This document shows positions 681 to 48,289 of a DNA stretch of 64,000 bases, one piece after another. The translations under genes were made by a program, and so were the position numbers. The notes below the pieces were generated by a model. The model had not been told where the DNA came from. It worked only from the letters and a program-made list of their open reading frames with translations, and did no database searches. The stretch is from Lytechinus variegatus (Eukaryota). The stretch's first letter is position 1. Every line of letters starts with the position of its first letter. The DNA lies in the NCBI RefSeq assembly GCF_018143015.1, contig NC_054751.1, forward strand, positions 28,385,438 to 28,449,437, in the 5' to 3' direction.

Positions 681-890
681 AATGAGTAACATTTATTTTC
701 GCCAGGTCATTTACACAATTCAAATAGGGATAAACGAGAATGATGACAAAATGAATGCGGGAACGGAAAATGAGAAAGAAAATTTATTGGTTCATAATTA
801 AGTTTCGCCGATAAAATCATACTTGTAAGTCTTGATTTTTTTCATTAAAAGTAGAATCCGAACTCATGATATTTTGGGTTTTTTCTTCAG

Positions 891-1618
891 GTTATGGGAA
901 CATCGCACCAGTCACGACCGGTGGGCGCATCTTCTGCATCTTCTACGGGGTCTTCGGCATCGCACTCCTACTCATCATCCTGGCCAGCATCGGGACCCTC
1001 TTAGCCCAGGGCGCCACCCTTACCTACCGGCGCATGCACACCATGGTCCAGAGTGTCAAGGGAGAGGAGCCCGAAGACGACATGCTCTATCAGCGTGATC
1101 GACGATCACAGGAGATCATCGACGAGATCTGGTCACCACCTCCCGAGGTTCCGAAGGATGGCGAGACGTTGCCGATCCACCGGGTCGATCTGCATGAGAC
1201 CGGGAAGAAGGGCAAGAAGGGTGGACGGAGGGTTGGCGGCGCCATCGGAAAAGGGGAGCAGGCACAGCCGGAAGAACCGCAGATACCTCTCATCGGGATC
1301 CTGATATTCGCGTTCCTGTACGTGTGTCTTCTGGCGCTGCTGATGCAGGCGTGGGAGTCGCAGTGGAACTACTTCGAAGCCTTCTATTTCTCCTTCATCA
1401 CCCTCACCACCATCGGGTTCGGTGACCTGGTTCCCGCGGATCAGAAGCAGCTCATAGCGTCCATCTTCTTCATTCTCCTCGGTATGGCCGTCATGTCGAT
1501 GTGCATCGCGCTCGCCCAGGACATGATCATCCAGAAGGTGGCTTGGTTGAGTGATAAGATCAGCGTCGTCGTCGCCGGCAACAAGCGAAGGAACGTAGAG
1601 GAAGAGGAGGAGTCATAG
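891..1618 (+). CDS. Last coding exon of a two-pore-domain (K2P/KCNK) potassium channel. It runs from pore loop 1 through TM2, a ~110-aa cytoplasmic loop, TM3, pore loop 2 and TM4 to a short C-terminus and the stop codon
   Basis: Translation of ORF 866..1618 contains SGYGNIAPVTTGGRIFCIFYGVFGIALL (filter 1 plus TM2) and FITLTTIGFGDLVP (filter 2). Two hydrophobic helices follow the pore loops. The acceptor is tttttcttcag|GTTATGGG at 890/891, with the frame entering in phase (codon ggt spans the junction). Stop TAG is at 1616-1618. Confidence 0.85.
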
Positions 1619-10859: not shown

Positions 10860-11355
10860 CTAGTAGGGATGGTAACCCGGGTTAATCTTTGAAGATCTAC
10901 GCATACTGGGTCCATTCTTCCCACCACCGTGACAAGTCCTAGGATCGTACGATTGCCAGTAAGGTTGGAAACCCCAATTCGGGTCGTTCCCGTACGGACC
11001 GTTCCCGTAAGGATCATTACCATACGGAGCGTTTCCATGCGGCGAGTACCCGTACGGGTCGTTCCAGTTCGGACCATATGGATCCATGTGTCCACCTCCA
11101 TTCCACGAGTCATGGTAGTAGGCTTCCTGTCCCTGCCATTCGACTCTATGATCCATCCCTCTGTCTCTCCTCAAGCTGCCACCCCTACTTCTGAATGGAC
11201 CATCCTGCTGGGCTCTCCCATTCCACTGATAGGGGTCGTAGAAGTGCTGATGACCTCTTCTTATTTCTTTGTCATGATCATGGTTATTTCTAGTCCAATG
11301 ATGGTCATTCTTTCCCTTGCCTTTGTAGTGTTTTTTGGTATGTGAAGAAGCTCTC
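10860..11355 (-). CDS. Terminal coding exon encoding a Tyr/Pro/Gly/Asn/His-rich low-complexity C-terminal region with repeated (N)DPYG motifs. The protein is unidentified
   Basis: The minus-strand frame is open from the acceptor ctgtttcctcattgatacag|GAGAGC (AG at 11356-11357) to stop TAG at 10860. Translation reads ...KHYKGKGKNDHHWTRNNHDHDKEIRRGHQHFYDPYQWNGRAQQDGPFRSRGGSLRRDRGMDHRVEWQGQEAYYHDSWNGGGHMDPYGPNWNDPYGYSPHGNAPYGNDPYGNGPYGNDPNWGFQPYWQSYDPRTCHGGGKNGPSMRRSSKINPGYHPY*. An in-frame TGA lies immediately upstream of the acceptor, so the exon boundary is sharp. Confidence 0.5.
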
Positions 11356-13741: not shown

Positions 13742-14280
13742 TTCTCTCTTTCAACATCAAGCTTCAGTGTGAAATAAAACTTTCATTGCCCGCAACTTGA
13801 CTACTCACTTATCATCATTCAGGTGTAGAAGATCGTTGATGTAATTCTGTCGTTCCACTGGGTACCCTCTTGCGTCTTTAAAGGCTGTATACGGGGAATG
13901 AATAAAAGGAAAACAATATGACATGTCGGTCATGTTCCCCATTCAGAAATATATGATACCACAATGTACATTTACAGTAATTTGAGCAAGTATCTTGGCA
14001 ATTTCTTCACTGAATGTAACTAAAACTGGATCACTCTGCCTTGTTCCCTGGAGAGCATTTCATGAAACCAAAACTGATTTCACTGACAAATGTTATAAGC
14101 TACTGAAATCATGGCACCTGATTAGTCGAGAGCAAATTAGACAGTGGAAATCACTGAAAGAGAACTCTTCATGAAATGCTCTACTGATAATGCCAAATAG
14201 AGCAAATACTACATGTATGTACAAAGGAGTCCACCAAACAAGTCACATGATGGACTGCAAACCTCTATGAAGACATACAC

Positions 14281-14370
14281 AAGTAAAAAATATCTATTAA
14301 TTGGTCGATATCTTCTTGATCGTTCATAGATTCCACACAGCAAAATATTATCCAGCTGCTCTATTAGACT
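14281..14370 (-). CDS. Candidate following exon of the phosphatase gene. It matches only weakly (GIYERSRRY against the GHCLERQNY / GIYKGDY region), and its donor is uncertain
   Basis: Acceptor ctaatag|AGCAGCTGG is phase-compatible with the previous exon and gives EQLDNILLCGIYERSRRYRPINRYFLL. A possible donor is TTACTT|gtgtat. The support is motif-level only. Confidence 0.3.
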
Positions 14371-14447
14371 ACAGGTAAGTAATGTTAATCTTTCATTTTA
14401 AGGGAAACAATAAAAAAGAAGAAATTAAATAGGAATCAATTACAAAC

Positions 14448-14494
14448 CTTTCAATGCATCCTCTGGCTTAAACCCCTCATGTTCTATCAGATAC
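14448..14494 (-). CDS. DUSP11: Exon of the DUSP11/PIR1-like phosphatase immediately after the catalytic exon
   Basis: Minus-strand translation is (R)YLIEHEGFKPEDALK, against DUSP11 RYLIDVEGVRPDDAIELF. Its phase joins the catalytic exon exactly: CG + G gives Arg. The acceptor is ttttgatag|GTATCTG and the donor is GAAAG|gtttgt. Confidence 0.65.
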
Positions 14495-14671
14495 CTATCA
14501 AAATAGGGGTAAAGTAAACGAGGAAGAGCACAAAATTATTGATAAAGTATACAAAGTATCACGAAGGAAACATACAAAAAAGGAAAACTTTCAGCATAAC
14601 ACATGGCACACACAAGGCATTCATTGAATAATGTATTGCAATCTGACAGCATAATGGTTAATGATTATAAT

Positions 14672-14770
14672 GAGCCAGGTTCGATTCCCACCTCATTACC
14701 AGGTCCCTCGGAGAGGACCTTAAGCCTTTGGTCTTCTGGTTTCTTGCTTACATGCATTCATGCTTTCACC
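14672..14770 (+). mobile_element. 3' fragment of SINE family S2
   Basis: gagccaggttcgattcccacctcattaccaggtccctcggagaggaccttaagcctttggtcttctggtttc matches the reverse complement of 10430-10500. Confidence 0.6.
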
Positions 14771-14986
14771 ATTACCTTCCCCCCCAAAAAAAATAGAAAA
14801 AAAAGAAATAAAATGAATGAATAAATAAAATCAATCAATCAATGAATAAAAATAAATAACAAAGCAATTAACAAATAAATAAAAATATTTACATTTTCAA
14901 TTTCTTTTCAATTAAATTCATTTATGGTTATCAATTTATACATTTATCAATTCATACATCTATCAATTTTCTTTATTTATTACTTA

Positions 14987-15844
14987 GGGGAAGGCGGGGT
15001 AAGTTGTGACAGTTTTTGCTTTTTGCATGTTAGAATTGATATGATTAATAATCTTGTCAAAATAAGTACCTTGCCTTGAAATTTAATTCTTCTGAAATAT
15101 TTTCCACCTATATATAACTTTCTATCCCCACACTGAAAGTCATCGTGACCTTTGAAAAAAACGATGTCAAATGGCTCAACTTGCCCCATATATGGGGTAA
15201 GTTTGAACCACCTTCTGGGGTAAGTTGAGCCACAAAAACTATGTACAAAATGTATGGGGGAGAACCAGCATGTCAATTTTTTGTTTAAAGTCTTTTCACT
15301 TGCTAATTCTCTATAAATACTAACATCCTGTAAAAGGAAAAGAGCAGTCATGTTAATTTGCTCCTTTCAGCCTGCATTTCAATCGATTTTTATGGTTTGT
15401 TTGTTTTTTAAGATACATTACCATAGGAATTACCATGGCTCAACTTGCCCCATGCTGTTTGGCTCAACTTACCCCAGTCCGGACTTAGTGCGATAATTTT
15501 GTATCCACACATTTATTATGCATCCATCATATAAAAGACTATGACAAGAATGAAGATCCATACCTGGACTAATAATGTTGTTATCATGTCTTCATTATAT
15601 TTAAAGACGTGTGTGTATATAAAGCACTTATCTATTTCACACTCTTTTTTACTTTTTTGGCTGAAATTCATATTTTTCCCTCTAAAAAACTACTTTTTGT
15701 TTCAAAGTTGGAAACAATGTGGTGGGGTTAGGGGTTATGCTATGGGTCATCAATACATGACACCACCACAATGTCTGACTCATTCATTATTGGCCTGGGG
15801 CTGGTGGCTCAACTTGCCCCTATGCTCAACTTACCCCGCCTTCC
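14987..15844. mobile_element. ~860-bp TIR element (GGGGAAGGCGGGGTAAGTTG ... CAACTTACCCCGCCTTCCCC) with subterminal direct repeats of GGCTCAACTTGCCCCAT / GGGGTAAGTT
   Basis: The termini are exact inverted repeats, and 15-20-bp motifs are reiterated near both ends. It lies in an intron of the phosphatase gene. Confidence 0.7.
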
Positions 15845-16021
15845 CCTACTATTCATTTATTCTATTTCTTTTATTGTGATTCTTAGGGGGGCAGGGGAGG
15901 GGGTAAATGTTGATGGGAATCATTTGTACCCCAGACTTTCAAACTGATAATGCATCATGTGACTTCTTTTGACTACATGTATATAAACCAATAATGCAAC
16001 ATGTAAGTACATTGTCCTCAC

Positions 16022-16082
16022 CGACATATAAGGTATCCAGTCCTATTCACCCCATGAGTACAGTGCACACCTATAATGGTAT
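16022..16082 (-). CDS. DUSP11: Catalytic exon of the DUSP11/PIR1-like phosphatase, carrying the HCxxGxxR P-loop. It is not present in the supplied ORF track
   Basis: Minus-strand translation is (x)TIIGVHCTHGVNRTGYLICR. This contains the Cys-based PTP active-site motif HCTHGxNRTG and matches DUSP11 (GVHCTHGLNRTGYLICRYL). The acceptor ctttctttttcag|ATACC is preceded by a strong polypyrimidine tract, and the donor is TGTCG|gtgagg. The incoming phase differs from the outgoing phase of exon 21231-21310, so at least one short exon lies between them. Confidence 0.75.
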
Positions 16083-17130
16083 CTGAAAAAGAAAGAAAGA
16101 AATAGAAAAGAAATACCATGAAATATCCACTGAAGTGAGAGTGAGGTACCGTTCTCACTACCTTCCTAAAACCAGTTTTGTGGAAACTAGTTCAACGTGT
16201 AATGAAAATGGTCGAAGTAATCTTCCATACCAGTTCAAAAAACCACCTCGCCATGTTGTTTTCAAGATCGCTTTGCCTTGTTAAACTGATTTTAGCGTAA
16301 GTTCTTCAGGAAGCGATCTTCGCACATTTTGAGCACACTACTGCACACACTGTGTGTAGAATGCCTATGTTGCACTTTCAAATTTCGCACGAAACGTGTC
16401 ACCCCACTGAGAGCATTCCCGTAGCAACAAGATTGCTTTACGTGAAGTGATTTCAAAAACCACTTTCGGGTGATCAAATGGAAACACTAGCAAAGCAACC
16501 TTCCAAACTGGTTTCCTGAACCGATTTCCAGCAAACTAGTTTTAGAAAGTGTAATGACAATGGGGTCTGAAAGAGACAGAGAAAGAGGGTTCAAACAAAA
16601 TAATGTCAAGAAGAAAAAACACACCACAGTGAAAACTAAAAGAAAAATTTAGATCAGGGTTTAACCTAAAAAAAAGTGAGATTAATCATAATGATACTCG
16701 AAGAGAGATTAATCTCCATCGTCTACTTTTGATAAAGAAATCAGTGGCTAGTCACGAAAAGGATTGAGATTGATTTCAATAAAACTTACATTGAGATTTA
16801 TCTCAAACTCATATCTCTTAACACAGCAGAGATCAATCTCAATTTGAATTTCAATGTTGAATCAATCACAGCTCTTTGCAAGACAGGGTCCTTATTAGCA
16901 ATTGATGTAACTGATTTTGTTGATAGTCTTCCAGCTATGCATATTCTTTCAAAACTCGATCAATAATATTCTTAAAGAATAAAAGCTTCTAGAGTCATGG
17001 ATCACTGAGTAAACCTGCAAACTATGAAAACAAGTGCTGGGGTTCAAATCACACTGTTGTCAAGAGGGAGGTATTCATTTCTGGTTATATAGATGAGCAG
17101 TTTGCTTGCACAACTTATTTCGTTTTAGAA

Positions 17131-18229
17131 ACAAGTGGAATGCCTCTGGCCGTCTCACCTGCATCACGCGGTTCAATATAGCAGCAGTGCTGACTTTGAA
17201 TACTACTCTTACTCGCACAAGATGTTCAGTGATACATGGTTACTCTTATGTCCACTTTTTATGAACTAGACCAATAATTACAGAGATATGATGGTTATTC
17301 AACAAAAAAACCCAACATGGCCAAATTTCATTGACCTTACATGACCTTTGACCTTGATCATGTGAACTGAAACTCGAACAGGATGTTCAGTGATACTTGA
17401 TTACTCTTATGTCCAAGTTTCATGAATCAGATCCATAAACTTTCAAAGTTATGATGGTAATTCAACAGATACACCCAATTCGGCCAAAGTTCATTGACCT
17501 TTGACCTTGGTCATGTGACCTGAAACACGCACAGGATGTTCAGTGATACTTGATTACTCTAATGTCCAAGTTTAATGAACTAGACCAATAAACTTTCAAA
17601 GTTATGATGGTAATTCAACAGATACTCCCGATTCGGCCAAAGTTCATTGACCCTAAATGACCTTTGACCTTAATCATGAGACCTGAAACTTGCACAAAAT
17701 GTTCAGTGATGCTTGATTACTATTATGTCCAAGTTTCATGAAACAGATCCATAAACTTTCAAAGTTATGATGGGAATTCAACAGATATCCCCAATTCGGC
17801 CAAAGTTCATTGACCCTAAATGACCTTTGACCTTGGTCATGTGACGTGAAACTCATGCAGGATCTTCAGTGATACTTGATTGACCTTATGTCCCAGTTTC
17901 ATGAACTAGGTCCATATATTTTCTAAGTTATGATGACATTTCAAAAACTTAACCTCAGGTTAAGATTTCGATGTTGATTCCTCCAACATGGTCTAAGTTC
18001 ATTGACCCTAAATGACCTTTGACCTTGGTCATGTGACATGAAACTCTAATAGGATGTTCAGTAATACTTGATTAACCTTATGCCAAGTTTTATTAACTAG
18101 GTCCATATACTTTCTAAGTTATGACATCATTTCAAAAACTTAACCTCAGGTTAAGATTTGATGTTGACGCCGCCGCCGTCGGAAAAGCGACACCTTTAGT
18201 CTCACTTTGCTTCGCAGGTGAGACAAAAA
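17131..18229 (+). mobile_element. Composite repeat, copy 1. It has the head aacaagtggaatgcctctggccgtctcacctgc, an internal ~150-175-bp tandem satellite of about 6 units, and the tail ...gccgccgtcggaaaagcg...cgcaggtgagacaaaa. GTCTCACCTGC near the head is the reverse complement of GCAGGTGAGAC at the tail
   Basis: The element recurs nearly intact at 30412-31524 (same strand) and 52817-54410 (opposite strand). The internal units share ...ttcattgacctttgaccttggtcatgtgacctgaaac...ggatgttcagtgatacttgattac... Confidence 0.85.
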
Positions 18230-18289
18230 TTACTAATCTCTTTTCTTTTGAATTCAATCAGACCATTATTGAAAATGAATATACTTAAT

Positions 18290-19490
18290 AGGGCTGGGAC
18301 TAAAACCCGGGTACCCGAGTCCCGCCCGGAAGCGTCAGGTACCCGGGTAGAAAAATCAATACCCGATACCCGAAAATTGCTCACCTGTATAACGTACATT
18401 TGATTTGTATTGCGTAGTGTAAGACATGATTGTAAACTCATCACATAAGTACACAAGTCTCATTTTGAATCTCACCAATTACCCTCGAAATATCCTTAAA
18501 TATACTAGTTTTTCAAGTGATGATGATGTGACTGAGATCGTTCAATCGTCGCCATGTTTCTTTTGCAGCGCAGTGACGTCATCCAGCCACTGCGACGCAA
18601 GCCAATTTATGAATGAAAATATAGTAAGCATGCGCATTGCAAGCCTCAGCCCCACGCAGGACGTCAAAACGAGTCTGCAATACTCTGTCACCTCGTACCA
18701 ATATCGACCTAGAATTCCACTTTCCTTTATTTCATATAAATTATGAAAGGTATTCTCGGAGGATCTGTTTTCTCACCGATACCACGCAAGTAAGGAAATT
18801 TTATTACTTCTTGCTTTTCCGTCAAATCGTACGAAGTAGCGTCGATGTTGCATCGTGTTTGTGAGTTTGTAGAATCTATCGCTACGTGAACAAAGTCAAT
18901 TGATTTCCGGGTTTCGGAGCGTCAAATGCGCCAGCCAATCACGATCGTGTTACCATTTTCGGTTTATGATGAACTGAAAATGGTATCAAGAACGTTATTG
19001 GCTTGCGCCTCGTATGCTCTGAAACCCGGAAATCAATTGACTTTGTTCACGTAGCGATAGATTCTACAAACTCACGAACACGATGTAATATCGACGCTAC
19101 TTCGTAAGATTTTGACGGAAAAGCAAGAAGTAATAAAAATTTGCTTACCAGTGCGGTATCGGTGGGAAAACAAATCCTCTGAGAATACCTTTTATAATTC
19201 ATATAAAATATAGAAAAGTGGATTTCTAGGTCGATTTTGGTACGAGGTGACAGAGTATTGCAGACTCGTTTTGACGGAATACTGCGTGGGGCTGAGGCTT
19301 GCAATGCGCATGCTTACTATATTTTCATTCATAAATTGGCTTGCATTGCATTGGCTTGATGATGACGTCACCTATGGGGTTTTTCCACCAGTCATATTTC
19401 GAGCGACATAATTTTCGGGTACCCGGGTACCCGCCCGAAAATTACCACGGGTACCCGAAAAGAAAAAAACCTGAAAGTCCCAGGCCTAAT
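18290..19490. mobile_element. ~1.2-kb foldback (long palindromic) element centred near 18975. Each arm carries TGACGTCA (CRE), CCAAT and GCGCATGC(G) motifs, and the termini are GGGTACCCG-rich
   Basis: 18560-18960 is the near-exact reverse complement of 18985-19385. The outer ends gggctgggactaaaacccgggtacccg ... cgggtacccgaaaag...agtcccaggcct are inverted. The centre is diverged but keeps agccaatcacg against agccaataacg. Confidence 0.8.
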
Positions 19491-20065
19491 ACTTAACAAG
19501 ATAAAGATCAATGCATCTTGTCATCTGCAGTAGAAATTTCACACAAAGAGCTCTAGTTTTACATGATTTCATGCACTAAGTTTGCTAATTATCATACGTA
19601 TTAATATCATCTCTCTGCCTCGATGATTGACATGTTTGAAATGACACTTATTCAAATAAATTTTAACAATAAGAGACTTGGCTTTTATCCACTTATCAAA
19701 ATTAAATGTATTTACCTTTATCTTTATTGGACTCCTTAAATGATGACATCGCAGTAGTAAACCTGAAATAAAATGTGACACAGACAATATTAAGAGAAAT
19801 TAAATGTAGCCCCAATTGTACCTCTATTACATACAGTATTTCTAAGGGAATAACATATAAAAACGGTGTTTCTTTTTTTTCTTTGTCATAGTGAATCTGA
19901 ACATGTGTGTGTGTGTGGGTGAATCATAGAATATAGAGTCCAGTCCTCCACAATGTCTCTGATGTCCATTGACAAGAACTAAAATGTGGTATGCATATCA
20001 AATGATTTTGGAAACTCTAGAAGCGTATAAAGTGTGTGCGGAGCAAACCAGAATCCGATGATCAG

Positions 20066-20266
20066 GGGGTGTTTCACAAAGATTTAAGTATGACTTAGAG
20101 TCGCACTTTAATGCCAAGTTGCCGTGTGTTTTAAAGGCATGACGGCATTGGTCAGATCATGCAAAGACGACGCACACTACTGCATATTGATCAATAAGAT
20201 TGCGCGTTTCATGTTGTGTGTGCGCCGGCATTTAAGTCATACTTAACTCTTTGTGAAACACCCCCC
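20066..20266. mobile_element. MITE with GGGGTGTTTCACAAAG... termini, related in end sequence to 494-680
   Basis: ggggtgtttcacaaagatttaagtatgacttag ... taagtcatacttaactctttgtgaaacacccc. Confidence 0.75.
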
Positions 20267-20835
20267 AGGGCTAATAATATATATACATGTATTTAAAGTG
20301 CATAGAGATGATCTGGGCCCAGTCTCACAAACAGGTGCAACAGATTCAAATCAAACAAAAATGATGATGTATATGGAATATATATATTTAAGAGATAGAG
20401 AGTTAAGTCAATCACAATTTAGGTTTGATTTTAATCCAATGGCACTCTTTGTAGGAAAGAACTATATTGTGTAGCTTAGTACACATCCTTTATTTGTCAA
20501 AGCAAAGCATCATGGTCTAAATTTATAAGTCTACCATAGGATGAATTGAATTGATAAAGCATTTCAAACCAGCAGTTCTCGATGTCAACAATAACCACAA
20601 ATTCTTGGATGCAGCGTATGCCATCAATTTGCCATTCACTTCATGCACTGAACTTAAAATTCAACTTCTTGTTCAGTGACGTGTGACCCCACAACTTCCG
20701 GACTACTTGTTTCGCAGCTAGCACTAGTCTCGTCGCATCCGCTTTCACAACACGTTCTCAATCTCTTCTTACACTGTGAGGAGGAATCATTGTAAAAGTT
20801 GCTGTTTGTGTCATCCCTCTTGGTGTATAATGTTC

Positions 20836-20922
20836 TTACCTTCAAGCTATCGGAAGTTACAGCGTCACACAAGTAAATGACATGAGGTACATCCTGGAAC
20901 TTTTTGTTATTGTCGAGAGCAA
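20836..20922 (-). CDS. Candidate internal exon of unknown assignment, lying inside the large intron of the phosphatase gene
   Basis: On the minus strand, acceptor atgttttcag|TTCTTGCTC and donor TTGAAG|gtaaga bracket (x)LALDNNKKFQDVPHVIYLCDAVTSDSLK. The phase is not compatible with the neighbouring phosphatase exons as modelled, and no family motif was recognised. Confidence 0.25.
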
Positions 20923-21230
20923 GAACTGAAAACATATTCTTGTTGTTTAAGCTTATACGGTGCATACCATTCAGCAGTGAATATTTGCGCCAACAACCTG
21001 CATTTGTGTTAGACTTGTCTCAAGACCCAATTGATGAAACTTTCAATCAGGTTCTGTAACCACATACTAGGATGGGGCGGGGGGAGCATTTCACTAAACA
21101 AATCTGTTACTTGTTATTTATTTGCAACTACTGGGCTCAGAACACAATTTTTTAGTGAAAATCAATGACTAATTGTTTTGTGAAACAAGAAACAAGATAC
21201 TGGTACTGTATAATAAACTGTTATACTCAC

Positions 21231-21310
21231 TTCTCTATGACTTCTGGTGAAGGCACAACATGACCCTGAGTGAAAATCTTTACATATTGCACATCCCTGT
21301 CAATAAAAAT
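21231..21310 (-). CDS. DUSP11: Next exon of the same DUSP11/PIR1-like phosphatase gene
   Basis: Minus-strand translation is IFIDRDVQYVKIFTQGHVVPSPEVIE(K). It is very similar to the DUSP11 segment YLKIFTVGHQVPDDETIFKF. The acceptor is ttttctttcag|ATTTTTATT and the donor is GAGAA|gtgagt, ending in phase 2. Confidence 0.7.
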
Positions 21311-22052
21311 CTGAAAGAAAAACAGAATCAAAGTGATTTGTTAACATTCTGATAACAATGTTTATAATATTTACAATAACACTATTTTTTAGAATATGGC
21401 ATAACATCTAAAGGTATATTGAAACTTTGAAAGGGTAAAGACTGACTTTTTAATAGAAAAATTACCCCCAAAATATGTAAAAGGTAGGCCTACAGGTTTC
21501 ACAGAAGACCATTTATTTTTCTGGGACATATGTTTGGTCCTGAAAAGGACCACCCAAACTTAAATCAGTTAGATATGATAAGCAATAGACAATTTGCATG
21601 AAGACAAAACATGGGTGGCACTAGGCTAATGATGGGGGGGGGGAGCAAGACACCCAAAAGGTGATATATTTCCTCAACTGATGACGATCTACAGAATTTC
21701 TATTGCGCCATATATCTCTATAAAAAAACATTTACAGGTGCAAGCTCACCCAATCAAAGTAATTACTACACATAATAAGTGATTTTTGAGGGACAATTAG
21801 AAAAGTTCAATGTTGTTGATTTAAAGGAGCGAAGAAGGGAGTTCCAAAGGTGTGGAGCAATAGATCGATTACAAGGACCAGACCTCTCCTTCATCATTTC
21901 TTTCTTTATCTCCACCTTTCTTCCTTTTGCCACCCCCTTCCCTTCTTCTTTCACTACTTGAAAATCATGGGGGGGTTGGTCACCCCCTGCCCCCCACCCC
22001 CCTCCCTCCCCGGTGGGGCCGCCCCCTGGGATAAAAATATACATGTACGTAC

Positions 22053-22152
22053 TTGTGGATTATAGTATCTAGTTGTGGCAGTCAGATCAATGAGAAGACC
22101 CAATTTGTAATTCATCTTATCTAGTTTGTCAAGAAGGGCATCTGGTGTGAAT
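22053..22152 (-). CDS. DUSP11: Exon of a DUSP11/PIR1-type dual-specificity (RNA 5'-phosphatase-like) phosphatase, N-terminal part of the phosphatase domain
   Basis: Minus-strand translation is (x)FTPDALLDKLDKMNYKLGLLIDLTATTRYYNPQ. This matches the conserved LGLxIDLTxTxRYY segment of DUSP11 and the mRNA-capping-enzyme triphosphatase domain. The acceptor is tttttttttag|ATTCACACC and the donor is CACAA|gtacgt. Confidence 0.7.
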
Positions 22153-22900
22153 CTAAAAAAAAAAATACGAAAAACAAATTAAGAACATGCGTAATTATAT
22201 AAATACTGGATGGGATACCAGTGGGGAGCATTTCATCAACATTTTTATCAGACAAGTTGTCAGAACTGATCGGCTAAGAGGAACTGATACCATGGTAACC
22301 ATTGAAATAAACAGGACTTGTTGGTTAAATGTCTGACAAGTCCTTTCATGAAAGTGCACTCCCAGAAATATTTGACAAGTTAGATCCAATAACGACCATA
22401 TCAGGGATGAGTGTAACATTGGCCCTAAAGAGTGTCCAGAATATATTTGATATCTCATGAAAAAAATTCCAGTCAATATACGCACTACATGTATTGTAAT
22501 CAATATTCATTAGACCATGCAAGTCAGCATTAACATGGACAGCAGATTTTGTACATGATGCATTTGGAGAATTCATAACATTTTGGCGAATCAAGCGATA
22601 TGCTTTAATATTGCACAGATAAACATGCTGACCAAAATACACAATTTTTATGCATTGCTGAAAACAAACAAATCACACAAGCATGAGATGACTATGAGTC
22701 CTTAAATAAAAGTTATCCGATGTTGACTTACTTGTCTTTTTCTCGTAATCTGAAGACCAGTTTCTGAAAATGTCAATAATAAAATAATGAATAATGGATG
22801 TCAAAGAAAAATAAAATAAGATTTGGTGTGACTCACATAAGAACAAGAGTAAGTTTCAACTAAAATGTAATTAAAGGAAACTACATGTATTATAAATCAG

Positions 22901-23208: not shown

Positions 23209-26200
23209 AGGATGATGATAATGAAAAATAAAAAGCTTGCCACAAGAGGGCTCATATTGGGAGATGTGGATAAAAATCTTTAAAATAGATGTAAGAATAG
23301 TGTTAATTCATATTTAATTAGCTTGATGTAAATTAATATAATTATGGTTTACTATGAGGCAGTCATGGGCCACTTTTCATAATTTTATGATGGCAACATC
23401 AGGCCCAAAGAACAATCTAAAAAAAATACAAATAACAAAAGCATGTGTGCCAGTGTGTGCACACACAGCGTTCTCGCCAGTGTATAATACGCATGGTTCA
23501 AACACCATGCATGCGGAAATGGAGACCAAGTGGAACCATGCGTAAAATTTCAGCGACATGCGTGGAAAAATTAAATGGAAATATTCAGAAAAAAATAATA
23601 CACTTCATGAACTCATCTTGGTGATATCAACTTCATTTATCGGGTTGCGCCGAAGTCCTACCAACTTAAGACCACTTACAGGCCTACTACGGCTAGGAAA
23701 GTGGCAAGGCGCCCAGCTAGCTCGAGGCTGCTATTGCGGGCATATGACAGCACGGTACGGTCGTTCCGTTGCCTATTCCCCCGTTTGCCCTGCACATCAC
23801 ACCGGCTATGCTCCATGGTGAAACGTCAGATCACAGACTCACACAAAACTTACATGTCGATCTACATGCCATTACCTTGTTTGGTGTTGGAACACACAGT
23901 CCTAAATCACTAGGAAGTGTCCGTGATATATTTTGTATTTGTGTATGTGCACGAAAGCCACACGTATGCGCTCAGCTAGCTCAGCGAATTAAGTTGGATG
24001 ACGCGTCTCAACTCTATTGACCAACTCCATTACATATCACATGACCCTCAATCATGAACGCTGTTTTATTCCGAAGTTGAATGCATTTCATGATTTCCCT
24101 TTTCTCGAAAATATTTACAATTCATAAGCTGGAAAGCTGCACTTCTCTTTCTTTGGACTGAACGCCAACGGCAAGTATCTGTGCATTTATGTGCATTTGT
24201 GTGGGCTTAAAAATACGCCACAATGGGGCTTCCTTAGCGGTCTCTATTTGATGAAAAGGCCGTCGCTTCCGCGCTCCGCCCTCCCGCACCCACCCCCCAG
24301 GAGTGGCAGCACAAGTCCCCGACATGGGTGAATTTTTTTCTGGAGAGAACGCTGTGCACACATAGTAACAGATGCTTATTCCCACTCATTCAGCCTAGAC
24401 AAATTCCATCATGTTTCTCCACTAGTTTAGCTCAAAACCTTTTAATTGACTACAGCATTGTGACCTCAAAAACGATGAAGAGAAGCAAAAATGTTCCCCT
24501 ACTGTAAAGGTCACACAAGTGGGTCAGTCACTTTTATTCTAGGGTGATTCAAGGAAATATATCCACATCTAATTAACTGACCAATCACACGACAACAATC
24601 TTCTGATGTCAAAGACAAGATATTTATAAATTGGCATTCACTCACTTTTCTTAATGGTACTTTGAGTGGGAGTATGTTGGTCCCTTTGATGACATCGCCA
24701 AAAGGTTCATAATTCATCCACCTGTGGAAAAAAGTCAGAAATAAAAAATTCATTTAGAACTACACTGTACATGTACCTACATGTATGTGTAACAATACGA
24801 AGATTTTCAAAGTGGTTGGGTACATGGATTTCTATCTCAGAAGAATGAGGCCATGAGTGTGTAGAGACTGTAACAATTCAATAACCAATTTCGAACAACC
24901 ACAAATTTGCATCAATATTCATAACTTCGAGCTTGTAATGTATCAAAGCAAAAAGATGAAAGAAAAAATTATACATAAGAAAGTTGAAGAAGACCTAAAA
25001 GTATTTAGCTACCTGATTTAACAAGTATGCGTATGTGTGCTTTTAATCAGCCTAATTGCCATAATTCAACTTTTAGGACCAAATGTAAATACTCCAATGC
25101 TACTTGGACACTGTGTCCATATAACAGTAGTATACACGATTTTGTTTCATATCTCCATAGAAATGAGTCTAAATGGCATAAATTTTCCTGTAAAATGTAT
25201 GGACTTAATACAAATGGAAAGTATGATTAGTATTGAGTTGAGTACTTTTTGGTGATATTTGATGCATCTTTTTACCAGACATAATGGCTAATAAACTGGG
25301 AGCTCGATGTTCATCTGTCGGCCTCACAGAGACTAACCCTGCAAGCCAAGGTGGCATTAATGATTAATCCATTCAAATTGTCAGAGCAAGACTGCTCTGT
25401 GAAAGGTATCCAAGGGGTCAGGATATTAGAATACAAGAGAACTATAAAAACTAAAATCAAAGTAAATGAGAATTAAACCGTTGGATTTGTGTCCAACAGT
25501 TGGAAAAAGTCCATCAACCGAGATGGAGTCAGGGAGAAAAGAAAGTTTTTAGCTAGAAGCAAGGGACGGACAATTTGAACTGATCATCAGAAGGTCCCAT
25601 AACATTGATATACATCGTACATGTACATTTACGATGGGTCAACCAAGGGGGCATTTGGGTCACCTTGCAGAAGTGGAAATCTCAACAGCAGACAACAATT
25701 ATGTGACTGGCATCCGTCAGAAAGTCAGGTGTAAAGTTCTGCAGAATATGTGGAATCGATATTTTATGAAACCAATAAATCAATAATCTGCTGACAAGCA
25801 TTGAAAACACTACAACAGATTGTTTTGTCACAAATGTGGCCATTGAATAGAATCAAGAGGATCTAACTGGGAAGAAAGTGTACTCCTGTCAATGTGCCAT
25901 GAACCCTTTAGACACATTTGCAAAGGAAGCAATTACCATGCTGAAGAAGCTTGACACTGAAGCAGACCAACCTAAAGAAAATAAAAAACTGCCTTTCCAA
26001 AGCAGGAATGAAGGTAATGCCATGACACTCATTAGAGGTGCTTCCAAATTATTCAACAGTGAGGGTTTGGGGAATGACAAATTTGAGTGCATTCCTCAAC
26101 GAGTAGGGTGTCGAGTGTAGGGTGCCACGTTTCATCGAAACAGATCTGGCATACTTTAGTGCTAGCCTTTTATTCACAATCGGAAATCACATCATCGATT

Positions 26201-27636: not shown

Positions 27637-28970
27637 CTAAGACTCTATATTCAGTTCCAAATTCTGTCTCCTTTTTAGGTTGGCCGGATCATGTCCTGGT
27701 GGGTCAGCATCAAACTTGAACTTCACAGGTTCACATCTCCAATACTTATCCAATCCATTTTCGAAGCTGTGGACACTGGGTGCATTTACTAATTCACTAC
27801 TTAGGCTATTCCAAGGTTTCCTCATTCTTATGTAAAAGGAATTCTTACGTTTCTCAGTTACTGACCTCGGAATGTACAATTTTTTATCATGACCCCTGGT
27901 AGGCCCCTGCACCTGTCCCAAATCTGGCACTACCTCCTGGTCATACCTGTGAAATAACTTGTATGTTTCAATCATGTCTCCTCGCGCACGGCGATAAGCT
28001 AATGTAGGAAGTTTTAGTTGAATCAATCTTTGTTCATATGGGAGGTTCTTAACCTCAGGTACCAACTTAGTGGCCCTTCTTTGTACATTTTCTATTGCTT
28101 GAATATGTTTCTTTAAGTATGGACTCCATACTGCATGAGCATACTCCAAATGAGGTCTAATCAATGCTTTGTATAGGAGCAAGAAGTTCTCCTTGTGAAG
28201 ATAAACAAATGTTCTCCTAATTAGATTCATTAGCCTATTGGCTTTATTTATGTTTGACTGAAAGTGTTGGTCAAAACTAAGCTTTGTGTCGACAATCACT
28301 CCTAAATCTTTACTAGTTTCAACTTGTGATAGATTATGTGACGCATTATCATGAGTCATTGTATAGTCAATGAAATCATCATTTCTTTTACCTATTGTAA
28401 GTACACAACATTTATCCGGATGGAACTTTAATAGCCACTTGTCTGACCATGAAACTAGACGATCTAAGTCCGCTTGTAATAACTCAGCATCTCTGTCATT
28501 TTTTACATGCTTGTATAACTTGGTGTCATCTGCAAATAAATGAACAGTACTTGACAAAATCTGATCTGGTAGATCATTAATGTACATTACAAAAGCAGGG
28601 GTCCGAGGACACTCCCTTGCGGTATTCTGCTGGTTACATCAGCCCAGTCAGAGAACACACCATTCACACAAACACGGTGCTGTCGACCAACAAGAAATGA
28701 CCTGACCCACTCACATATGAGCTTCGATATGCCAAATCCCTCAACTTTGGCTAAAAGTCTTTGGTGTGGGACCTTATCAAAGGCTTTCATGAAATCTAGG
28801 TAGATGACATCAACTGCACCACCAACCTCCAACATATTTGTCCAATCATCTAACACATTGAGTAATTGCAACATTGTTGATCGTCCTGATACAAATCCAA
28901 ATTGTTTTGAACTGAGAAGGTTGTTGCTCTTCACATGCTCATATATTTCATCCCTCAAGATAGACTCCAT
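27637..28970 (-). pseudogene. Frameshifted reverse-transcriptase coding remnant of the LINE
   Basis: Two adjacent ORFs in different frames share continuous RT homology (fingers/palm motifs through the C-terminal domain). Confidence 0.8.
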
Positions 28971-28994
28971 GATTTTACATACAATACATGTTAG

Positions 28995-29057
28995 ACTTAT
29001 TTCGGACAGGTTGACTGTCCGTCTTCAGGACACTCCTGAAGACGGACAGTCAACCTG
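28995..29057. repeat. Perfect hairpin (30-bp stem, 3-nt loop) at the 5' truncation point of the LINE
   Basis: ttcggacaggttgactgtccgtcttcagga cac tcctgaagacggacagtcaacctgtccgaa. One arm is in-frame RT coding sequence and the other is its inverted duplicate. Confidence 0.9.
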
Positions 29058-30411
29058 TCCGAAACGTCGAGCTCTCTACTACTCATCATCTCTACTCGCC
29101 GACTCAAGCCAGCATCTCCTCATCAGCTCTACTACTCAAGCTGTTCTCACTTAACATTCCTTCTGGTTTACAGTCCTTTTCAGGACTATTTTCAAGAAAG
29201 AATACTCTACTCTCAAATCTCCACTTTCTCGCCTATTCACTTCTTCTATCCACTGTTTCTATAACACTCCACATGGTGTACCGTAAACCACATCAGCAAA
29301 TGGACATGTGATTACATTTTTTTAGGAGGAATGATTAGCTGTGTGAAAATATGTATGTAGAATTGTATGCAATTTATTTCAAGTATCAAGAAGGATAAAA
29401 ATTAAGTTTTAATACATGTATATTCTATCAGTTGTTAATGTATTTCTTAGATTTGTATACATACATTGTATTACAAAGGCCCTGTTTGAGATTTCTTTTT
29501 TTAAAGAAAAATAAATAAATTCAAATTATTAGTGGAAGCCAAAAGAAAAGGAAAAGAGTGGTCTATTTCTTTCAAAGCAAAACAAAAAAACAGGAATAAA
29601 TATAACAAAGCTCTAAACAACAATATAACAGACATCAAAGCTCCAAATAAACTCTAAAAACAAGAGAAACAAAAGTGATACAAACGCTTATACCAATCCC
29701 ATATATTTTCCAATTCAAAACACAACCCCCAACTGCACCCCTAATGAAAAAAAAGAAAAGTAAATTAAAAAAAATAAATAGTAAAATTAATAATAAAAAA
29801 CATAAATACAAGACTTAGACCCATCTGGAAATGAAATATTATTTCCTCTGAGTTTTTATGTATTTTCTTACAAGAGTGAAATAATTACAAAAAAAAACAT
29901 ATAGTTTGTGCATTTTAATAGAAAAATCTACATTTAAGATATTCTCCTTTCAAACACAAATCCAGTCTCCAAATAATGAAACATGAAAAAAAAATGAAAA
30001 AATAAACGATACAAAAAGTTAAAAAGAAACTAAAAAATATATATATGAAAACGAAACTATTTTTTTTTAAATAAACATAATTTTTGCATTTTAATTAGAA
30101 AGTCAACATTTATGATATTCCCCTTTCAAAAGCAAATCCAGTCTTTCAATAATGAAACATGTTTGAAAATTTTCAAAACATAATTTTTTCTACAAAATAA
30201 AAAAAAGAAACACTATAGATTTTGCATTTTAATTTAATAAGTCAACATTAATATTCCACTTCCAAAAGAATCCAGTTTCCAATTGATGAAACATGATTGA
30301 ACAATCAAACATCTTGACTCTATAACCTTGGGAGGAAAGAATGTTTTTGTGACAAATATTCAAATCAATATCAGCATAATAATCTATGGTATGGCACAAT
30401 ATTATCAAGTA

Positions 30412-31524
30412 ACAAGTGGAATGCCTCTGGCCGTCTCACCTGCATCACGCGGTTCAATATAGCAGCAGTGCTGACTTTGAATACTACTCTAACTCGCACA
30501 AGATGTTCGGTGATACATGGTTACTCTCATGTCCACTTTTTATGAACTAGACCAATAAACTTACAGAGATATGATGGTTATTCAACAAAAAAACCCAACA
30601 TGGCCAAAGTTCATTGACCTTACATGACCTTTGACCTTGATCATGTGACCTGAAACTCGAACAGGATGTTCAGTGATACTTGATTACTCTTATGTACAAG
30701 TTTCATGAATCAGATCCATAAACTTTCAAAGTTATGATGGTAATTCAACAGATACACCCAATTCGGCCAAAGTTCATTGACCTTTGACCTTGGTCATGAC
30801 CTTGGTCATGTGACCTGAAACGCGCACAGGGTGTTCAGCGATACTTGATTACTCTAATGTCCAAGTTTAATGAACTAGACCAATAAACTTTCAAAGTTAT
30901 GATGGTAATTCAACAGATACCCCCGATTCGGCAAAAGTTCATTGACCCTAAATGACCTTTGACCTTAATCATGAGACCTGAAACTTGCACAAAATTTTCA
31001 GTGATGCTTGATTACTATTGTGTCAAGTTTCATGAATCAGATCCATAAACTTTCAAAGTTATGATGGGAATTCAACAGATATCCCCAATTCGGCCAAAGT
31101 TCATTGACCCTAAATGACCTTTGACCTTGGTCATGTGACGTGAAACTCATGTAGGATGTTCAGTGATACTTGATTAACCTAATGTCCAAGTTTCATGAAC
31201 TAGGTCCATATATTTTCTAAGTTATGACATTTCAAAAACTTAACCTCAGGTTAAGATTTCGATGTTGATTCCTCCAACATGGTCTAAGTTCATTGACCCT
31301 AAATGACCTTTGACCTTGGTCATGTGACATGAAACTCTAATAGGATGTTCAGTAATACTTTATTAACCTTATGGCCAAGTTTTATTAACTAGGTCCATAT
31401 ACTTTCTAAGTTATGACCTCATTTCAAAAACTTAACCTCAGGTTAACATTTGATGTTGACGCCGCCGCCGCTGTCGGAAAAGCGGCGCCTATAGTCTCAC
31501 TTTGCTTCGCAGGTGAGACAAAAA
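30412..31524 (+). mobile_element. Composite satellite-bearing element, copy 2
   Basis: The head and tail are identical to copy 1, and the internal tandem units are collinear. Confidence 0.85.
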
Positions 31525-34302
31525 CAATACAGATCCAGTTCAATCCAGCATGAACGACTCACTATTGACTGCTGCCCTCACCAAGCCCTCCGCATCGGGT
31601 ACCGGTAGCTTGACTGCCGAAAGACCGACGGGAGCCCACCGGGCAGCTGGACTGCCGAGAGACCGGCTGTGACAAGGGTAGCTGGCACCTCTTATATTCT
31701 GGACTGCGTCATGTCAGAATGGTATGATTTTAGATTTTTTGGCAATTTGAATATATTTAAAGTTAATTCTGATACCTAATTTGAACGTTCTTCTACTTAC
31801 CATAAAAAAATTTCGAACATTTATGCGTCCAAAAATTTGATGAACTTTCAAGCTCCGATATCCACACTTTACAGGCGAGTATCCACATTGAAACTTATAT
31901 GTACAGAAAGTGCACATCTTCAACTGTCTGTTAAAAGGCACAAGATTGCATCTACTATGTGCGCATGAGCATTAAACCCCATTTTCGATAAGCCGCCCAG
32001 ACAGAGGCGATGCCACTTGCAGCAAAACCTGCGCGAAAACACCAAAACCAGCGCTCGCGATGCCCCGTACTCGCACATACCTAGATTATAATTAAAAATC
32101 TGCAACCCAGTATCCTCACACATCATAATTATCAACTCTTTAACTGACATACAACTATAAAATCCATAGCGTAAACATGTACACGATGCAAGGTTTGTAC
32201 AGCATACTAACCTCGCAATACATGTGAGTGCACCCATGGTTGGCAACAGTAAAAGAAATGATAGAAAAATCTGAAGTGAATGAAGCGGAAGTATCAATCA
32301 ACAATCTTTCGTTATTTTTTGCTGGGGTGTGGGTTGCATATGGAACCGTTTCCCTATTTTCATTTCTGTAAACTGAACTCTACTAGTTTATTAAACTAAA
32401 TACAATTATACAAAATGGCATTATCGTGATATTGGGAACCACCGTTCACTTCATACACTACAGCACTCATGTTTGGACCTCATTGGTACTAGTAGGAGTG
32501 CTCAGCAGTGCTTTATTCAGTCACACGCACGGTTCCCCATTTCCACCTCCATTCACTTCGTACACAAGTGTGCGTACACAAATCTACGAGTGGTTCCCCA
32601 AAACACGATTTGGCCTACAAAATAAAGAGCTGCAGATGACTGACCGTCTCTAATCTTTATCAATTCTAGATCTACAGTCCAGCACGAAAATTAGTGTATG
32701 GGGCTATAATTTACGCCGTACTTTCTCTTTTACACAGGCATTTCGCACTCACACAATTCGCCGATCCAGGCGAAACACTTATCTTTTATCACTTAAAGTA
32801 CTTGAATAAATTATCGAAAAATTGAAGGGAAATTATAAGCAGATCAAATAAATCATGTAACAATGGTATTTCATACTCACCGATCCGGTATTTTATTAGC
32901 TTTTGACATGGTTCTAGCGGCGGCTTCTTCAAAAACTCTGCAAAATTACCTCGCAAGGACGCAAGCTGGCGTTGTGCAACGAACGTAGAGGGCCGCCCTC
33001 TCTACGTTGTTGGCTGAAAATAATGATTATTGTCCTATCCTACCTTTATGGTATATATGTTGCTACTGTGAAGAGAATTTCAACTATACTCTAGTCCCTC
33101 TTTTTCTTTGTCTCCGACCTCCTCACGCTCCATGCAAGTTGCAGGGGGTCATTCTGATCAGTTGCTCTCCAGATCAAGCTCCTGAGGAAGAGCACCTTTG
33201 ATAATCATGCTCTTGCCTTGTCTTGTCTTGGGTGAAGTCGGCATATGCAGACTTGCTGTAATCAGCTCTTTATATCAGTTGAGGGTAAGCTCACGATCTT
33301 TGAAGCATCTGTCTTCTTGCTAAATAATGTGAAGTGGTACTCAGTAATTTTGAAAGACGATTACATTTTTTATATTAGTTAAGAAAGATGAAAAGTATAA
33401 ATATCATACCTTTAATTTATCTAGTCCACTTCTTCAACATCGGAATCTATTTAAGATCTTATTGCCAAATTAACACAACATGGTATAACAAATAGGGAAT
33501 TATCTGTACAAAGCTAGCATTTTTCTCCAAACTTCAATGCCATACCTTTAATTTCAATAACTTTTCCATCAGTATGCAAAAGAACAAAAATGAGACCACT
33601 GCCAAATATAAGTGTCCTCAGAGACCAATTATGCATGCGCTTATACTGCCATTACATCTTCAGAAGATAGCTGATAGTACATGGAATACCGGGTGGGCCT
33701 ACCCGTACTTGTTCAAGACTCGGTGGTTGTTCCCAAGGAATTAAAAGATCTCCCTTGTCGATACAATTCAGTGTCACCCTGTTCTATAACTTTTAAGGAT
33801 TAATGCATGCAGTTGCTGGTCGGCCGTCGAATCATGTATTTCATAATTCGATTCACACTTGCAGTATATGTGAATCGAAGTATAACACAGATCTGGCATA
33901 GGCATTGGTTGAGATTGTTGGTGAAGGGGAATCCTATATTGTGAGCATCTGGTCGAAGATGTATGGTATAGAGGGTAGTTGTGAGAATATAACATGACAT
34001 GGTGTGAATGTTAAATTGGTGTAGATTATTTGGAATCCCATGAAATGATTTGATACAAAATGATGAATTAAACGCTTTGTTTAAAGTCAGGCCTGTGAAA
34101 CTCGAGCGATCATCAAACTTTCATGCATGTGTGCCACCTTTACATGTGGTTCATTTTTATAAGCTTTAATGTTCATTCCATTTTGCATAAGCTTTGATTT
34201 GATACCAAACATGATATGTTTAGTGTACACTAGATAAATCATAATTAAGAGGTTGGCCTACTATATGTAAAAAGGATGGTGTGGTTTATAACGTCATATA
34301 TA

Positions 34303-34546
<244 letters not shown>

Positions 34547-34551
<5 letters not shown>

Positions 34552-34882
34552 TCTTTTACATGTGTCACCAAGGATTGCATATATTGCATCTACAGACTGC
34601 TCCAAGTGCAAGGAGATCTACATCGGAGAAACGAAAAGGAGGCTAGCTGACAGAGTGACCGAACATCTTCGCTCCATCAGGATCAAGTCAGCAGGTTTGC
34701 CGGTAGCCCATCATTTTACCCAACCGGACCATAACATCGGGTACTTCAAGGTGTGCGTTCTTCTGGCTGGTTTTCGTTCAGATGGGATAAGGAAAGAGAA
34801 GGAGGAACGCCTCATCCACTCACTCGGCTTTCTCCAACCTGATGGAATGAATGCGTCTTTCCATTCTTTTCCCGTGGTGTGA
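34547..34882 (+). mobile_element. 3' fragment of a Penelope-like element (PLE) encoding the C-terminal GIY-YIG endonuclease domain
   Basis: Translation is [85 protein letters not shown]. This has the CxxC ... YIGET..R...R..EH ... (E)ERLIH.L....P.GMN architecture typical of the PLE endonuclease. It starts abruptly after a (TA)n tract. Stop TGA is at 34880-34882. Confidence 0.75.
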
Positions 34883-46479: not shown

Positions 46480-47193
46480 TTCCTTTCGTATTATTTATGA
46501 TGATAGTTTTAGCTTTCTTCCTCTTTTTTCTTCCTATCTTTCTTTCCTTCTTTCATTTCAATCTTTCTTTGTTTCTTCCCTAATTTTTTTTGTTACTATC
46601 TTTTTTATTTTCCTTTTTTTCTTTAATTCGTTCTCTCTATCTTAAAAATATTTTTCTCCATTTTTTTCTCTTTCTTTCTTTTTTTCTTTCTTTTTTTCTT
46701 TCTTTCTTTCCTTCTTTCTTTCCTTCTTTCCTTCCTTCCTTCCTTCTTTTTTGATATTTTTCTTTCTTTAATTCTTGAGTCCATCCATCCTATATTCATC
46801 TCTTCCTTTCTTTCCTTCCTTTTACCCTTTTCTTTCTCATTCTTTGTTACTTTCTTTGTTTCTTTCTTCCACCCATCATTTATTACCTTTTTATTTCTTC
46901 TTTTCTTTGTCTCTCAGTCTTTCTTTTTTTCTTCCTTTCATCTTCTCTTTTACCTTTTCTTTTTTATATTGCGTATTTCCTTCCTTTATTTATTTATTTC
47001 CTTCTATCTATCATTTTACCTTTCTTCCTTCTTTCAATCCTTCCTCTCTTTCTTTCTTTTGTCCTTCTTTCCATCTCTCCTTTAACCCTTTCTTTTTTAT
47101 TGCTTCTTCTTTCTTTCCTTATACTACTTTCTGGATTTGTTCTTTCTTTCTGTATTGCTTGCTTCATTTCTTTCCTTCATTTCTTTTTTCTTT

Positions 47194-47225
<32 letters not shown>

Positions 47226-47468
47226 ATTTTTGTTCCTTTTTTATTCCTTCCTTCCTTTCCTTCTTTAGTTCTTTCTTTTTCATTCCTTCACATCTATCCT
47301 TTCTTTACTTTATCTTTTTTACTTCCTTCCTTTTTTATTCTTTCTTTCTTTTCCTCCCTTTCCTTCCTTCCTTTCTTCCTTCCTTCCTTTCTCTTATTTT
47401 TTCCTTTTCCTTCCTTCCTTCCTTTCTTTCCTTCTTCGTTTCTGTCTTGCTTTCTTTTTGTCCTTCAT
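46480..47468. repeat. ~1-kb polypyrimidine (TTTC/TTCC/CTTT)n tract on the plus strand
   Basis: Almost no purines over ~1 kb. It produces the artefact ORFs 46775..47485 and 47100..47504. Confidence 0.9.
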
Positions 47469-48289
47469 TTCATTGGGGGGGATAACGAAAGGCTAGACAA
47501 ATAAACTTGCGCCTTTTTTAATGTTGTCTTTATTTTTTGGGACCAGTAGATTTTAGGTTCGGACCAGTAGAAATTTGAAAAACTGGGTATCTACTGGTCC
47601 GACATGAAAATGGGTTAGTGTGGAGCCCTGCCTACAGGCTTGGACTTTGAGCCTGTGAATTTCCCCTCTGTGCATGTATACAAAAGAGTTGCTTGACACT
47701 TGTCTCTAACCCCAAACATTTCATCTTCATAAAACACTCTTTTGTGTAAACATTTCATAGCTATACAAATAATACAATAGAAAATATGTGCATTATCCTA
47801 GTATTGCCATGTGCATCATAAAGCAGGTCCTGGGATCCATAACACAAAGCATTGCTATGGATTGCAAATTATGAAAGAACATTCCTGATTGGTTCCCGAT
47901 CAGTAGTTGAACAAAATGCGCATGCCACAATAATTGTGATTGGTTGCCATTGAGTCCTGTTGAACTGATTTTGTTGCCAACAGTCTTGTAATGCATGCAC
48001 CAAACTGACATTCACGGGGAAGAATTCTGAAAAATGCAAACCTTAGTCCCAAAATCAAGCTTAGTGGGATGTGCCCAAGAAAATGGAGTTACAATTGAAA
48101 GCAAATCAAATTAAAGTTTGATTTTGATCAAAGAACTTGTGCTTGATTTTTGGACATACCCTATACCTGATTGCACTTGAGATTCCTATTATTTTTTTTA
48201 AATGTGATGTCTTTGTAGGTGACAAATAGCAAGAGTTTTTTTTTTTTTCCTTCTAAGTGTATTGTTTAGATACCCTTATATGCTTTTCA

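Follow-up and report, generated by a model that had tools for sequence, protein, structure and literature searches.

A ten-exon minus-strand gene of Lytechinus variegatus very probably encoding a DUSP11/PIR1-type RNA phosphatase

Introduction

A 64-kb stretch of the Lytechinus variegatus genome (contig NC_054751.1, positions 28,385,438 to 28,449,437 of the forward strand; hereafter the window) carries four short minus-strand exons, one of which encodes the phosphate-binding loop (P-loop) of a cysteine phosphatase. A sequence-only reading of this DNA had assigned them either to the DUSP11/PIR1 family of RNA 5'-phosphatases or to the N-terminal triphosphatase domain of the mRNA capping enzyme. 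This raises the question of whether the exons belong to an intact gene and, if so, to which of these two. The analysis presented here leaves us with high confidence that they are part of the L. variegatus DUSP11/PIR1 orthologue, an intact protein-coding gene with 10 coding exons (29-496 nt each) that extends across 22 kb of the minus strand, its coding sequence (CDS) running from position 32909 to 10860 (Table 1). A single DUSP11/PIR1 orthologue is what one would expect in a sea urchin, and this locus is that orthologue, an ordinary housekeeping-type gene. It is also already known, as the public annotation (RefSeq) models a complete, identical gene. The span 14281-22152, over which the gene had been described as dispersed, holds just 5 of the 10 coding exons.

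Reconstruction of the complete gene

When joined, the ten exons form a CDS of 1044 nt, which is uninterrupted by stop codons and encodes 347 amino acids (aa). All nine introns (563-8159 bp) are of the GT-AG type, and their phases are consistent throughout. The reconstructed product is identical over 347/347 residues (100%) to XP_041476552.1, for which a cluster look-up returned the RefSeq name 'RNA/RNP complex-1-interacting phosphatase-like [Lytechinus variegatus]'. It is composed of a 180-aa cysteine-phosphatase core followed by a 164-aa low-complexity tail.

The exon chain was rebuilt using a profile hidden Markov model (HMM) made from 67 database homologues, which was run against the window cut into its 4383 stop-to-stop fragments. 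Six fragments were matched (E values from 1.2e-14 to 0.1), all of them from the minus strand and in the order expected from the profile, and nothing else was obtained with E < 2; a collinear series of matches on one strand is far beyond chance. For the four exons noticed originally (exons 4, 5, 7 and 8 in Table 1) the E values, ranked from the lowest (that of exon 7) upwards, were 1.2e-14, 1e-09, 2.9e-05 and 0.1. Each of these exons proved to be splice-exact, i.e. bordered by a polypyrimidine tract with an AG acceptor and by a GT donor, and the peptides quoted for them were recovered in the correct frames, except that the final F of '...EVIEKF', attributed to exon 5, belongs to exon 6. Exons 2 and 9 were first revealed by tblastn and the HMM (the tblastn queries, RNGTT and DUSP11, served only as leads, the conclusions being drawn from database sequences).

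The gaps were filled by enumerating every phase-compatible, stop-free AG...GT/GC interval and scoring each of them with the HMM in its context. Exon 3 is required because exon 2 ends in phase 0 and exon 4 starts at the third base of a codon; the micro-exon listed in Table 1 was the top of 149 candidates (HMM score 79.2 vs 75.9). Similarly, exon 5 ends with two nucleotides of a codon and exon 7 starts with two, so that an exon with a length of 2 mod 3 has to lie between them. The sequence-only reading had correctly deduced from the phases that at least one small exon was missing at this place. Between 21225 and 16083 there are 324 phase-compatible candidates with AG..GT/GC borders, of which exon 6 ranked first (HMM score 79.6 vs 66.8 for the next one); it was aligned with the stretch FKHAVNGFLKENKDND of human PIR1. 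An upstream acceptor for the catalytic exon (ttcag/T at ~16131) fits the phase of exon 5 and would add GYFMVFLFYFFLSFS; it was rejected, since the insert is a translated polypyrimidine tract, and since exon 6 scores far better and matches the RefSeq protein. Exon 1 was the top of 451 candidate first exons (homologue-HMM score 94.5 vs 86.9 for the runner-up); its peptide is identical to the N-terminus of XP_041476552.1, and an in-frame stop codon is located 13 codons 5' of the ATG.

Six-frame translation of the window yields a single HCxxGxxR motif, within exon 7. This catalytic exon had been described as invisible to open reading frame (ORF) finding. It indeed lacks an internal Met, but it is contained in a 46-aa ORF with a GTG start, which is listed at a threshold of 20 aa. 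Poor ORF visibility is normal for a metazoan gene with exons of 29-100 nt, and the implied novelty is unsupported.

That the gene might be unannotated was briefly suggested by a word-indexed homologue search, which returned 0 echinoderm proteins (top identity 47%) and missed XP_041476552.1 despite the presence of several exact exon-length stretches in the query. This protein was found when the tail was used in an exhaustive HMMER search, which disproved the suggestion; the absence of a protein from a word-indexed search is not evidence for an unannotated gene. A by-product of the work is an explicit exon map of the DUSP11 gene in window coordinates. The value of the exercise is mainly that of quality control, as a reading of the letters alone placed four splice-exact exons within a dispersed micro-exon gene and foresaw a missing one; there is little significance beyond this.

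Table 1. Coding exons of the DUSP11/PIR1-type gene and repeats within its introns (window coordinates; residues in parentheses are encoded by codons split between exons; a slash marks a splice junction)
Feature	Position	Strand	Description
Exon 1 (CDS part, 29 nt)	32881-32909	-	ATG; MSKANKIPD(R); donor GTGAGT
Exon 2 (76 nt)	24646-24721	-	(R)WMNYEPFGDVIKGTNILPLKVPLRK; tblastn and HMM match; AG/GTGAGT borders
Exon 3 (32-nt micro-exon)	22732-22763	-	KLVFRLREKD(K); consensus splice sites ttttcag/.../gtaagt; confirmed by RefSeq identity
Exon 4 (100 nt)	22053-22152	-	FTPDALLDKLDKMNYKLGLLIDLTATTRYYNPQ; first exon of the sequence-only reading
Exon 5 (80 nt)	21231-21310	-	IFIDRDVQYVKIFTQGHVVPSPEVIE(K); second exon of the sequence-only reading
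Exon 6 (47 nt)	19716-19762	-	(K)FTTAMSSFKESNKDK(D), peptide KFTTAMSSFKESNKDKD; confirmed by RefSeq protein
Exon 7 (61 nt, catalytic)	16022-16082	-	(D)TIIGVHCTHGVNRTGYLIC(R); P-loop Cys129 and Arg135; HMM E 1.2e-14
Exon 8 (47 nt)	14448-14494	-	YLIEHEGFKPEDALK; fourth exon of the sequence-only reading
Exon 9 (76 nt)	13809-13884	-	(A)FKDARGYPVERQNYINDLLHLNDD(K); donor AA/GTGAGT overlaps in-frame TGA
Exon 10 (CDS part, 496 nt including TAG stop)	10860-11355	-	164-aa tail RASSHTKK...PYGNDPYGNGPYGND...GYHPY, stop
163-bp satellite, 4.5 copies	17211-17935		Inside intron 6; passenger repeat, no part in gene function
Foldback, ~0.8 kb	18579-19362		Intron 6; nested inverted arms, 88-95% complementary
201-bp MITE	20065-20265		Intron 5; 33-nt terminal inverted repeats

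Assignment to the DUSP11/PIR1 family

Comparison with proteins of solved structure (phmmer against PDB) placed the product closest to human PIR1. The alignment of core residues 4-177 with residues 5-177 of the PIR1 crystal sequence needs one 1-residue gap and scores 186 bits (E 4.7e-54), while the scores of the 183-aa core against other phosphatases were 138 bits for the baculovirus enzyme BVP, 111 bits for RNGTT, and less than 30 bits for PTEN and DUSP23. The concatenated peptides of the four original exons gave E values of 1.8e-26 with PIR1/DUSP11, 7e-18 with BVP and 1e-15 with the capping enzyme. With ~50% identity to solved PIR1 across the whole core, the fold can be assigned safely.

The named homologues in a large protein database were nearly all RNA/RNP complex-1-interacting phosphatases or DUS11; a few bore generic names, and one, a 194-aa Schistosoma protein, was labelled 'putative mrna-capping enzyme'. 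Pfam analysis of the 347-aa product revealed DSPc (54.5 bits vs a cut-off of 33.5) as the sole family clearly above its own cut-off. The P-loop HCTHGVNRT (residues 128-136), encoded by exon 7, fits HCTHGXNRT, the RNA-triphosphatase consensus of DUSP11 and BVP (PMC5785229). All family-conserved residues (43/43 columns at least 85% conserved among the 67 homologues) are kept, and so the enzyme looks intact.

The capping-enzyme option holds that the exons encode the N-terminal RNA triphosphatase domain of RNGTT, with guanylyltransferase exons located further downstream. The P-loop HCTHGxNRTG is common to the DUSP11-type core and RNGTT, and the capping-enzyme chains 2c46 and 8p4b were significant matches (E ~1e-30). 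However, RNGTT scored 75 bits below DUSP11, and the full-length capping enzyme 8p4b (597 aa) was aligned only at its residues 4-175. The guanylyltransferase domain envisaged downstream was not found in the 64 kb by tblastn with an RNGTT query, and Pfam detected no mRNA_cap_enzyme domain in the product, in which DSPc stands alone, without a fused guanylyltransferase. Furthermore, the ORF of the gene runs on into the low-complexity tail and its stop codon at 10860, and the next gene downstream is that of a K2P channel on the opposite strand. The capping-enzyme reading is refuted for practical purposes, and we give it almost no chance of being correct, whereas the DUSP11/PIR1 assignment, with PIR1 as the top structure match and the identity to the RefSeq protein, stands.

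C-terminal tail and the donor of exon 9

The tail is rich in R, H, W, Y, N, P and G, bears PYGND repeats and gave no match in Pfam. It is encoded within a 166-codon open frame (11360-10863, minus strand) that starts exactly at a phase-compatible acceptor (ttgatacag/G), and it was found by the exhaustive HMMER search to be 100% identical to residues 184-347 of XP_041476552.1. A counterpart ORF, 41-43% identical, is present at positions 45-581 of contig L001 (1266 bp) of Logan SRR28370585, and it follows the same acceptor (tatacag/GAG). The occurrence of this ORF and the shared acceptor on a contig from a separate short-read assembly indicates that the predicted tail is a conserved coding exon; the counterpart presumably represents the last exon of the orthologous gene in another echinoid. 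Human DUSP11 does not need its C-terminal region for activity; the region helps to bring the protein into the nucleus (PMC5785229). Our guess, by analogy, is that the tail of the sea urchin protein probably modulates localisation and not catalysis.

The donor of intron 9 (AA/GTGAGT) overlaps an in-frame TGA (13805-13810), and an unspliced transcript would encode exactly the 183-aa catalytic core. A gene model stopping at TGA 13805 (183 aa) was superseded after the tail ORF and its acceptor had been found, and is kept as a possible minor isoform. According to an alternative explanation, such a core-only protein, made by read-through of exon 9 to the TGA, is the main product, and the annotated tail exon is minor or spurious. 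The overlap of AAG/TGA with the donor, an ATTAAA located 63 nt 3' of the TGA, and the many tail-less invertebrate homologues of 170-205 aa speak for it. On the other hand, the exon-9 donor is a consensus GTGAGT, the 166-codon tail frame begins precisely at a phase-matched acceptor and is conserved together with it in another assembly, RefSeq models the long form, and vertebrate DUSP11 likewise has a long C-terminal extension (PMC5785229). We therefore consider it unlikely that the short form predominates, and retain the 347-aa protein as the main product.

A bolder idea, to which we attach quite a low probability, is that the overlap of TGA and donor constitutes a built-in switch, in which splicing would add the echinoid-specific 164-aa tail, and intron retention would yield the 183-aa core-only phosphatase. 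If this were true, the aromatic/Asn/Gly/Pro-rich tail with its PYGND repeats might give the enzyme a nuclear or condensate location, and the animal, whose innate-immune repertoire is very large, would be able to adjust where its surveillance of 5'-triphosphorylated (5'-ppp) RNA takes place.

Predicted function and comparison with related phosphatases

Homology with DUSP11, PIR-1 and BVP suggests that the nucleophile attacking 5'-ppp RNA at its terminal phosphate would be Cys129 of the P-loop, and that this phosphate would be bound by Arg135 and the P-loop amides. The gamma and beta phosphates of 5'-triphosphorylated RNA would thus be removed, leaving 5'-monophosphate ends, and this removal may control the stability of such RNAs, as well as their small-RNA loading and their visibility to innate immunity. 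Enzymes of the PIR1 family are known to strip ppp-RNA of its beta and gamma phosphates, giving 5'-p RNA (bioRxiv 10.1101/2020.08.03.235143), and triphosphorylated transcripts are substrates of DUSP11 (PMC5066614), which tunes the sensitivity of RIG-I (PMC7706711). In mammals this activity governs the Argonaute loading of noncanonical microRNAs, the turnover of RNA polymerase III transcripts and RIG-I sensitivity (PMC5066614, PMC7706711).

The core of the sea urchin protein is collinear with human DUSP11/PIR1 (PDB 4MBB, 4NYH, 4JMJ) over 174 residues with one 1-residue gap; both proteins share the P-loop region HCTHGxNRTGYLICRYLI and have a long non-catalytic C-terminal extension. Their lengths are also similar (~330 aa in human DUSP11, 347 aa in the sea urchin). 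They differ at both ends: human DUSP11 carries an arginine-rich N-terminal segment before the core, whereas in the sea urchin the core begins at residue 4 without such a segment, and the human tail is Arg- and Pro-rich, whereas that of the sea urchin is unrelated and Y/W/N/P/G-rich.

The baculovirus protein BVP (PDB 1YN9) belongs to the same fold family, has the HCTHGxNRT motif, and was aligned over residues 7-177 (E 3e-39). It is, however, a tail-less viral protein of 168 aa, scoring ~48 bits below the PIR1 match, in contrast to a cellular gene with nine introns. The triphosphatase domain of RNGTT/Mce1 (PDB 2C46, 1I9S) is also a cysteine-phosphatase RNA triphosphatase with the same P-loop, but in RNGTT it is fused to a guanylyltransferase, which the sea urchin protein lacks. 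As a family, capping enzymes are known to remove the gamma phosphate only.

Nematode PIR-1 homologues (e.g. BMA-PIR-1) were found among the database matches, although with only 37-40% identity to the sea urchin protein. C. elegans PIR-1 is a member of the same family, with a likely equivalent activity on ppp-RNA, i.e. beta and gamma phosphate removal (bioRxiv 10.1101/2020.08.03.235143). It acts in the endogenous small-RNA pathway of Dicer and RNA-dependent RNA polymerase.

Three points weigh against the interpretation of the locus as an intact DUSP11/PIR1 orthologue. The proposed splicing is derived from sequence logic and from identity to a RefSeq model that is itself computational (XP_); the putative substrate specificity is deduced from the ~50% identity to the human core; and homology of the tail to that of human DUSP11 was not detectable.

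Repeats in the introns

The sequence-only reading had placed a single intron of ~5 kb, filled with repeats, upstream of the catalytic exon. With exon 6 identified, this region is split into intron 5 (21230-19763, 1468 bp) and intron 6 (19715-16083, 3633 bp). The satellite, the foldback and one of the two claimed miniature inverted-repeat transposable elements (MITEs) are indeed present (Table 1), but the foldback is shorter than the 1.2 kb given for it, and no second clear MITE was found within 16083-21230. The 163-bp satellite array recurs in intron 1, at 30491-31227 and 31097-31459 (~4.5 copies, 81-83% matches). Its presence in two different introns of one gene points to a mobile element that carries the satellite and inserted twice.

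Intron 1 also contains two ORFs of 145 and 333 aa (27640-29024, minus strand) that overlap, are shifted in frame and have Pfam RVT_1 matches. They represent a decayed reverse transcriptase of the non-LTR type (long interspersed nuclear element, LINE), oriented like the host gene. The upstream edge of this fragment carries a perfect 31-nt palindrome (29000-29064). In intron 7, an 864-bp element (14985-15848) is bordered by perfect 22-nt inverted repeats (TAGGGGAAGGCGGGGTAAGTTG) and contains related 18-nt inverted repeats; it may be a second MITE or belong to a foldback family.

The load of LINE reverse transcriptase fragment, satellites, foldback and MITE within the introns, as well as the tiny, widely spaced exons, might point to a decaying pseudogene or an exon relic broken by transposon insertions. 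Such an explanation is very improbable, as the ORF is unbroken over its 347 codons, every splice site is canonical, the 43/43 conserved positions are kept, no repeat in the introns overlaps an exon, and a second assembly shows conservation of both the tail exon and its acceptor.

Other features of the window

Upstream of the DUSP11 gene, a near-perfect 27-nt palindrome (AACGTAGAGAGGGCGGCCCTCTACGTT; 32982-33008, minus strand) is located 73 nt 5' of the ATG, in the presumed promoter or 5' untranslated region, and the local CpG observed/expected ratio is ~1.2-1.3 at 32600-32999. A 147-aa open frame at 34439-34879 (plus strand) begins within a (TA/TATA)n microsatellite and includes a GIY-YIG-like string, which we take to be reminiscent of the endonucleases of Penelope-like elements; Pfam gave no match for it at E <= 0.001, nor did it match the ORFs 14983-15366 and 20657-21019. 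A strongly strand-biased low-complexity tract at 46600-47500 (GC skew -0.34, AT skew -0.40) leaves several frames uninterrupted for 150-240 codons, on either strand, with translations that are F/L/S-rich on one and K/E/R-rich on the other; it is probably a CT-rich simple repeat rather than coding DNA. A large exon of a K2P/TWIK potassium channel (Pfam Ion_trans_2), whose 100% identity with the protein 'potassium channel subfamily K member 15-like [Lytechinus variegatus]' agrees with the species assignment, lies near the start of the window (836-1615, plus strand), convergent with the DUSP11 gene.

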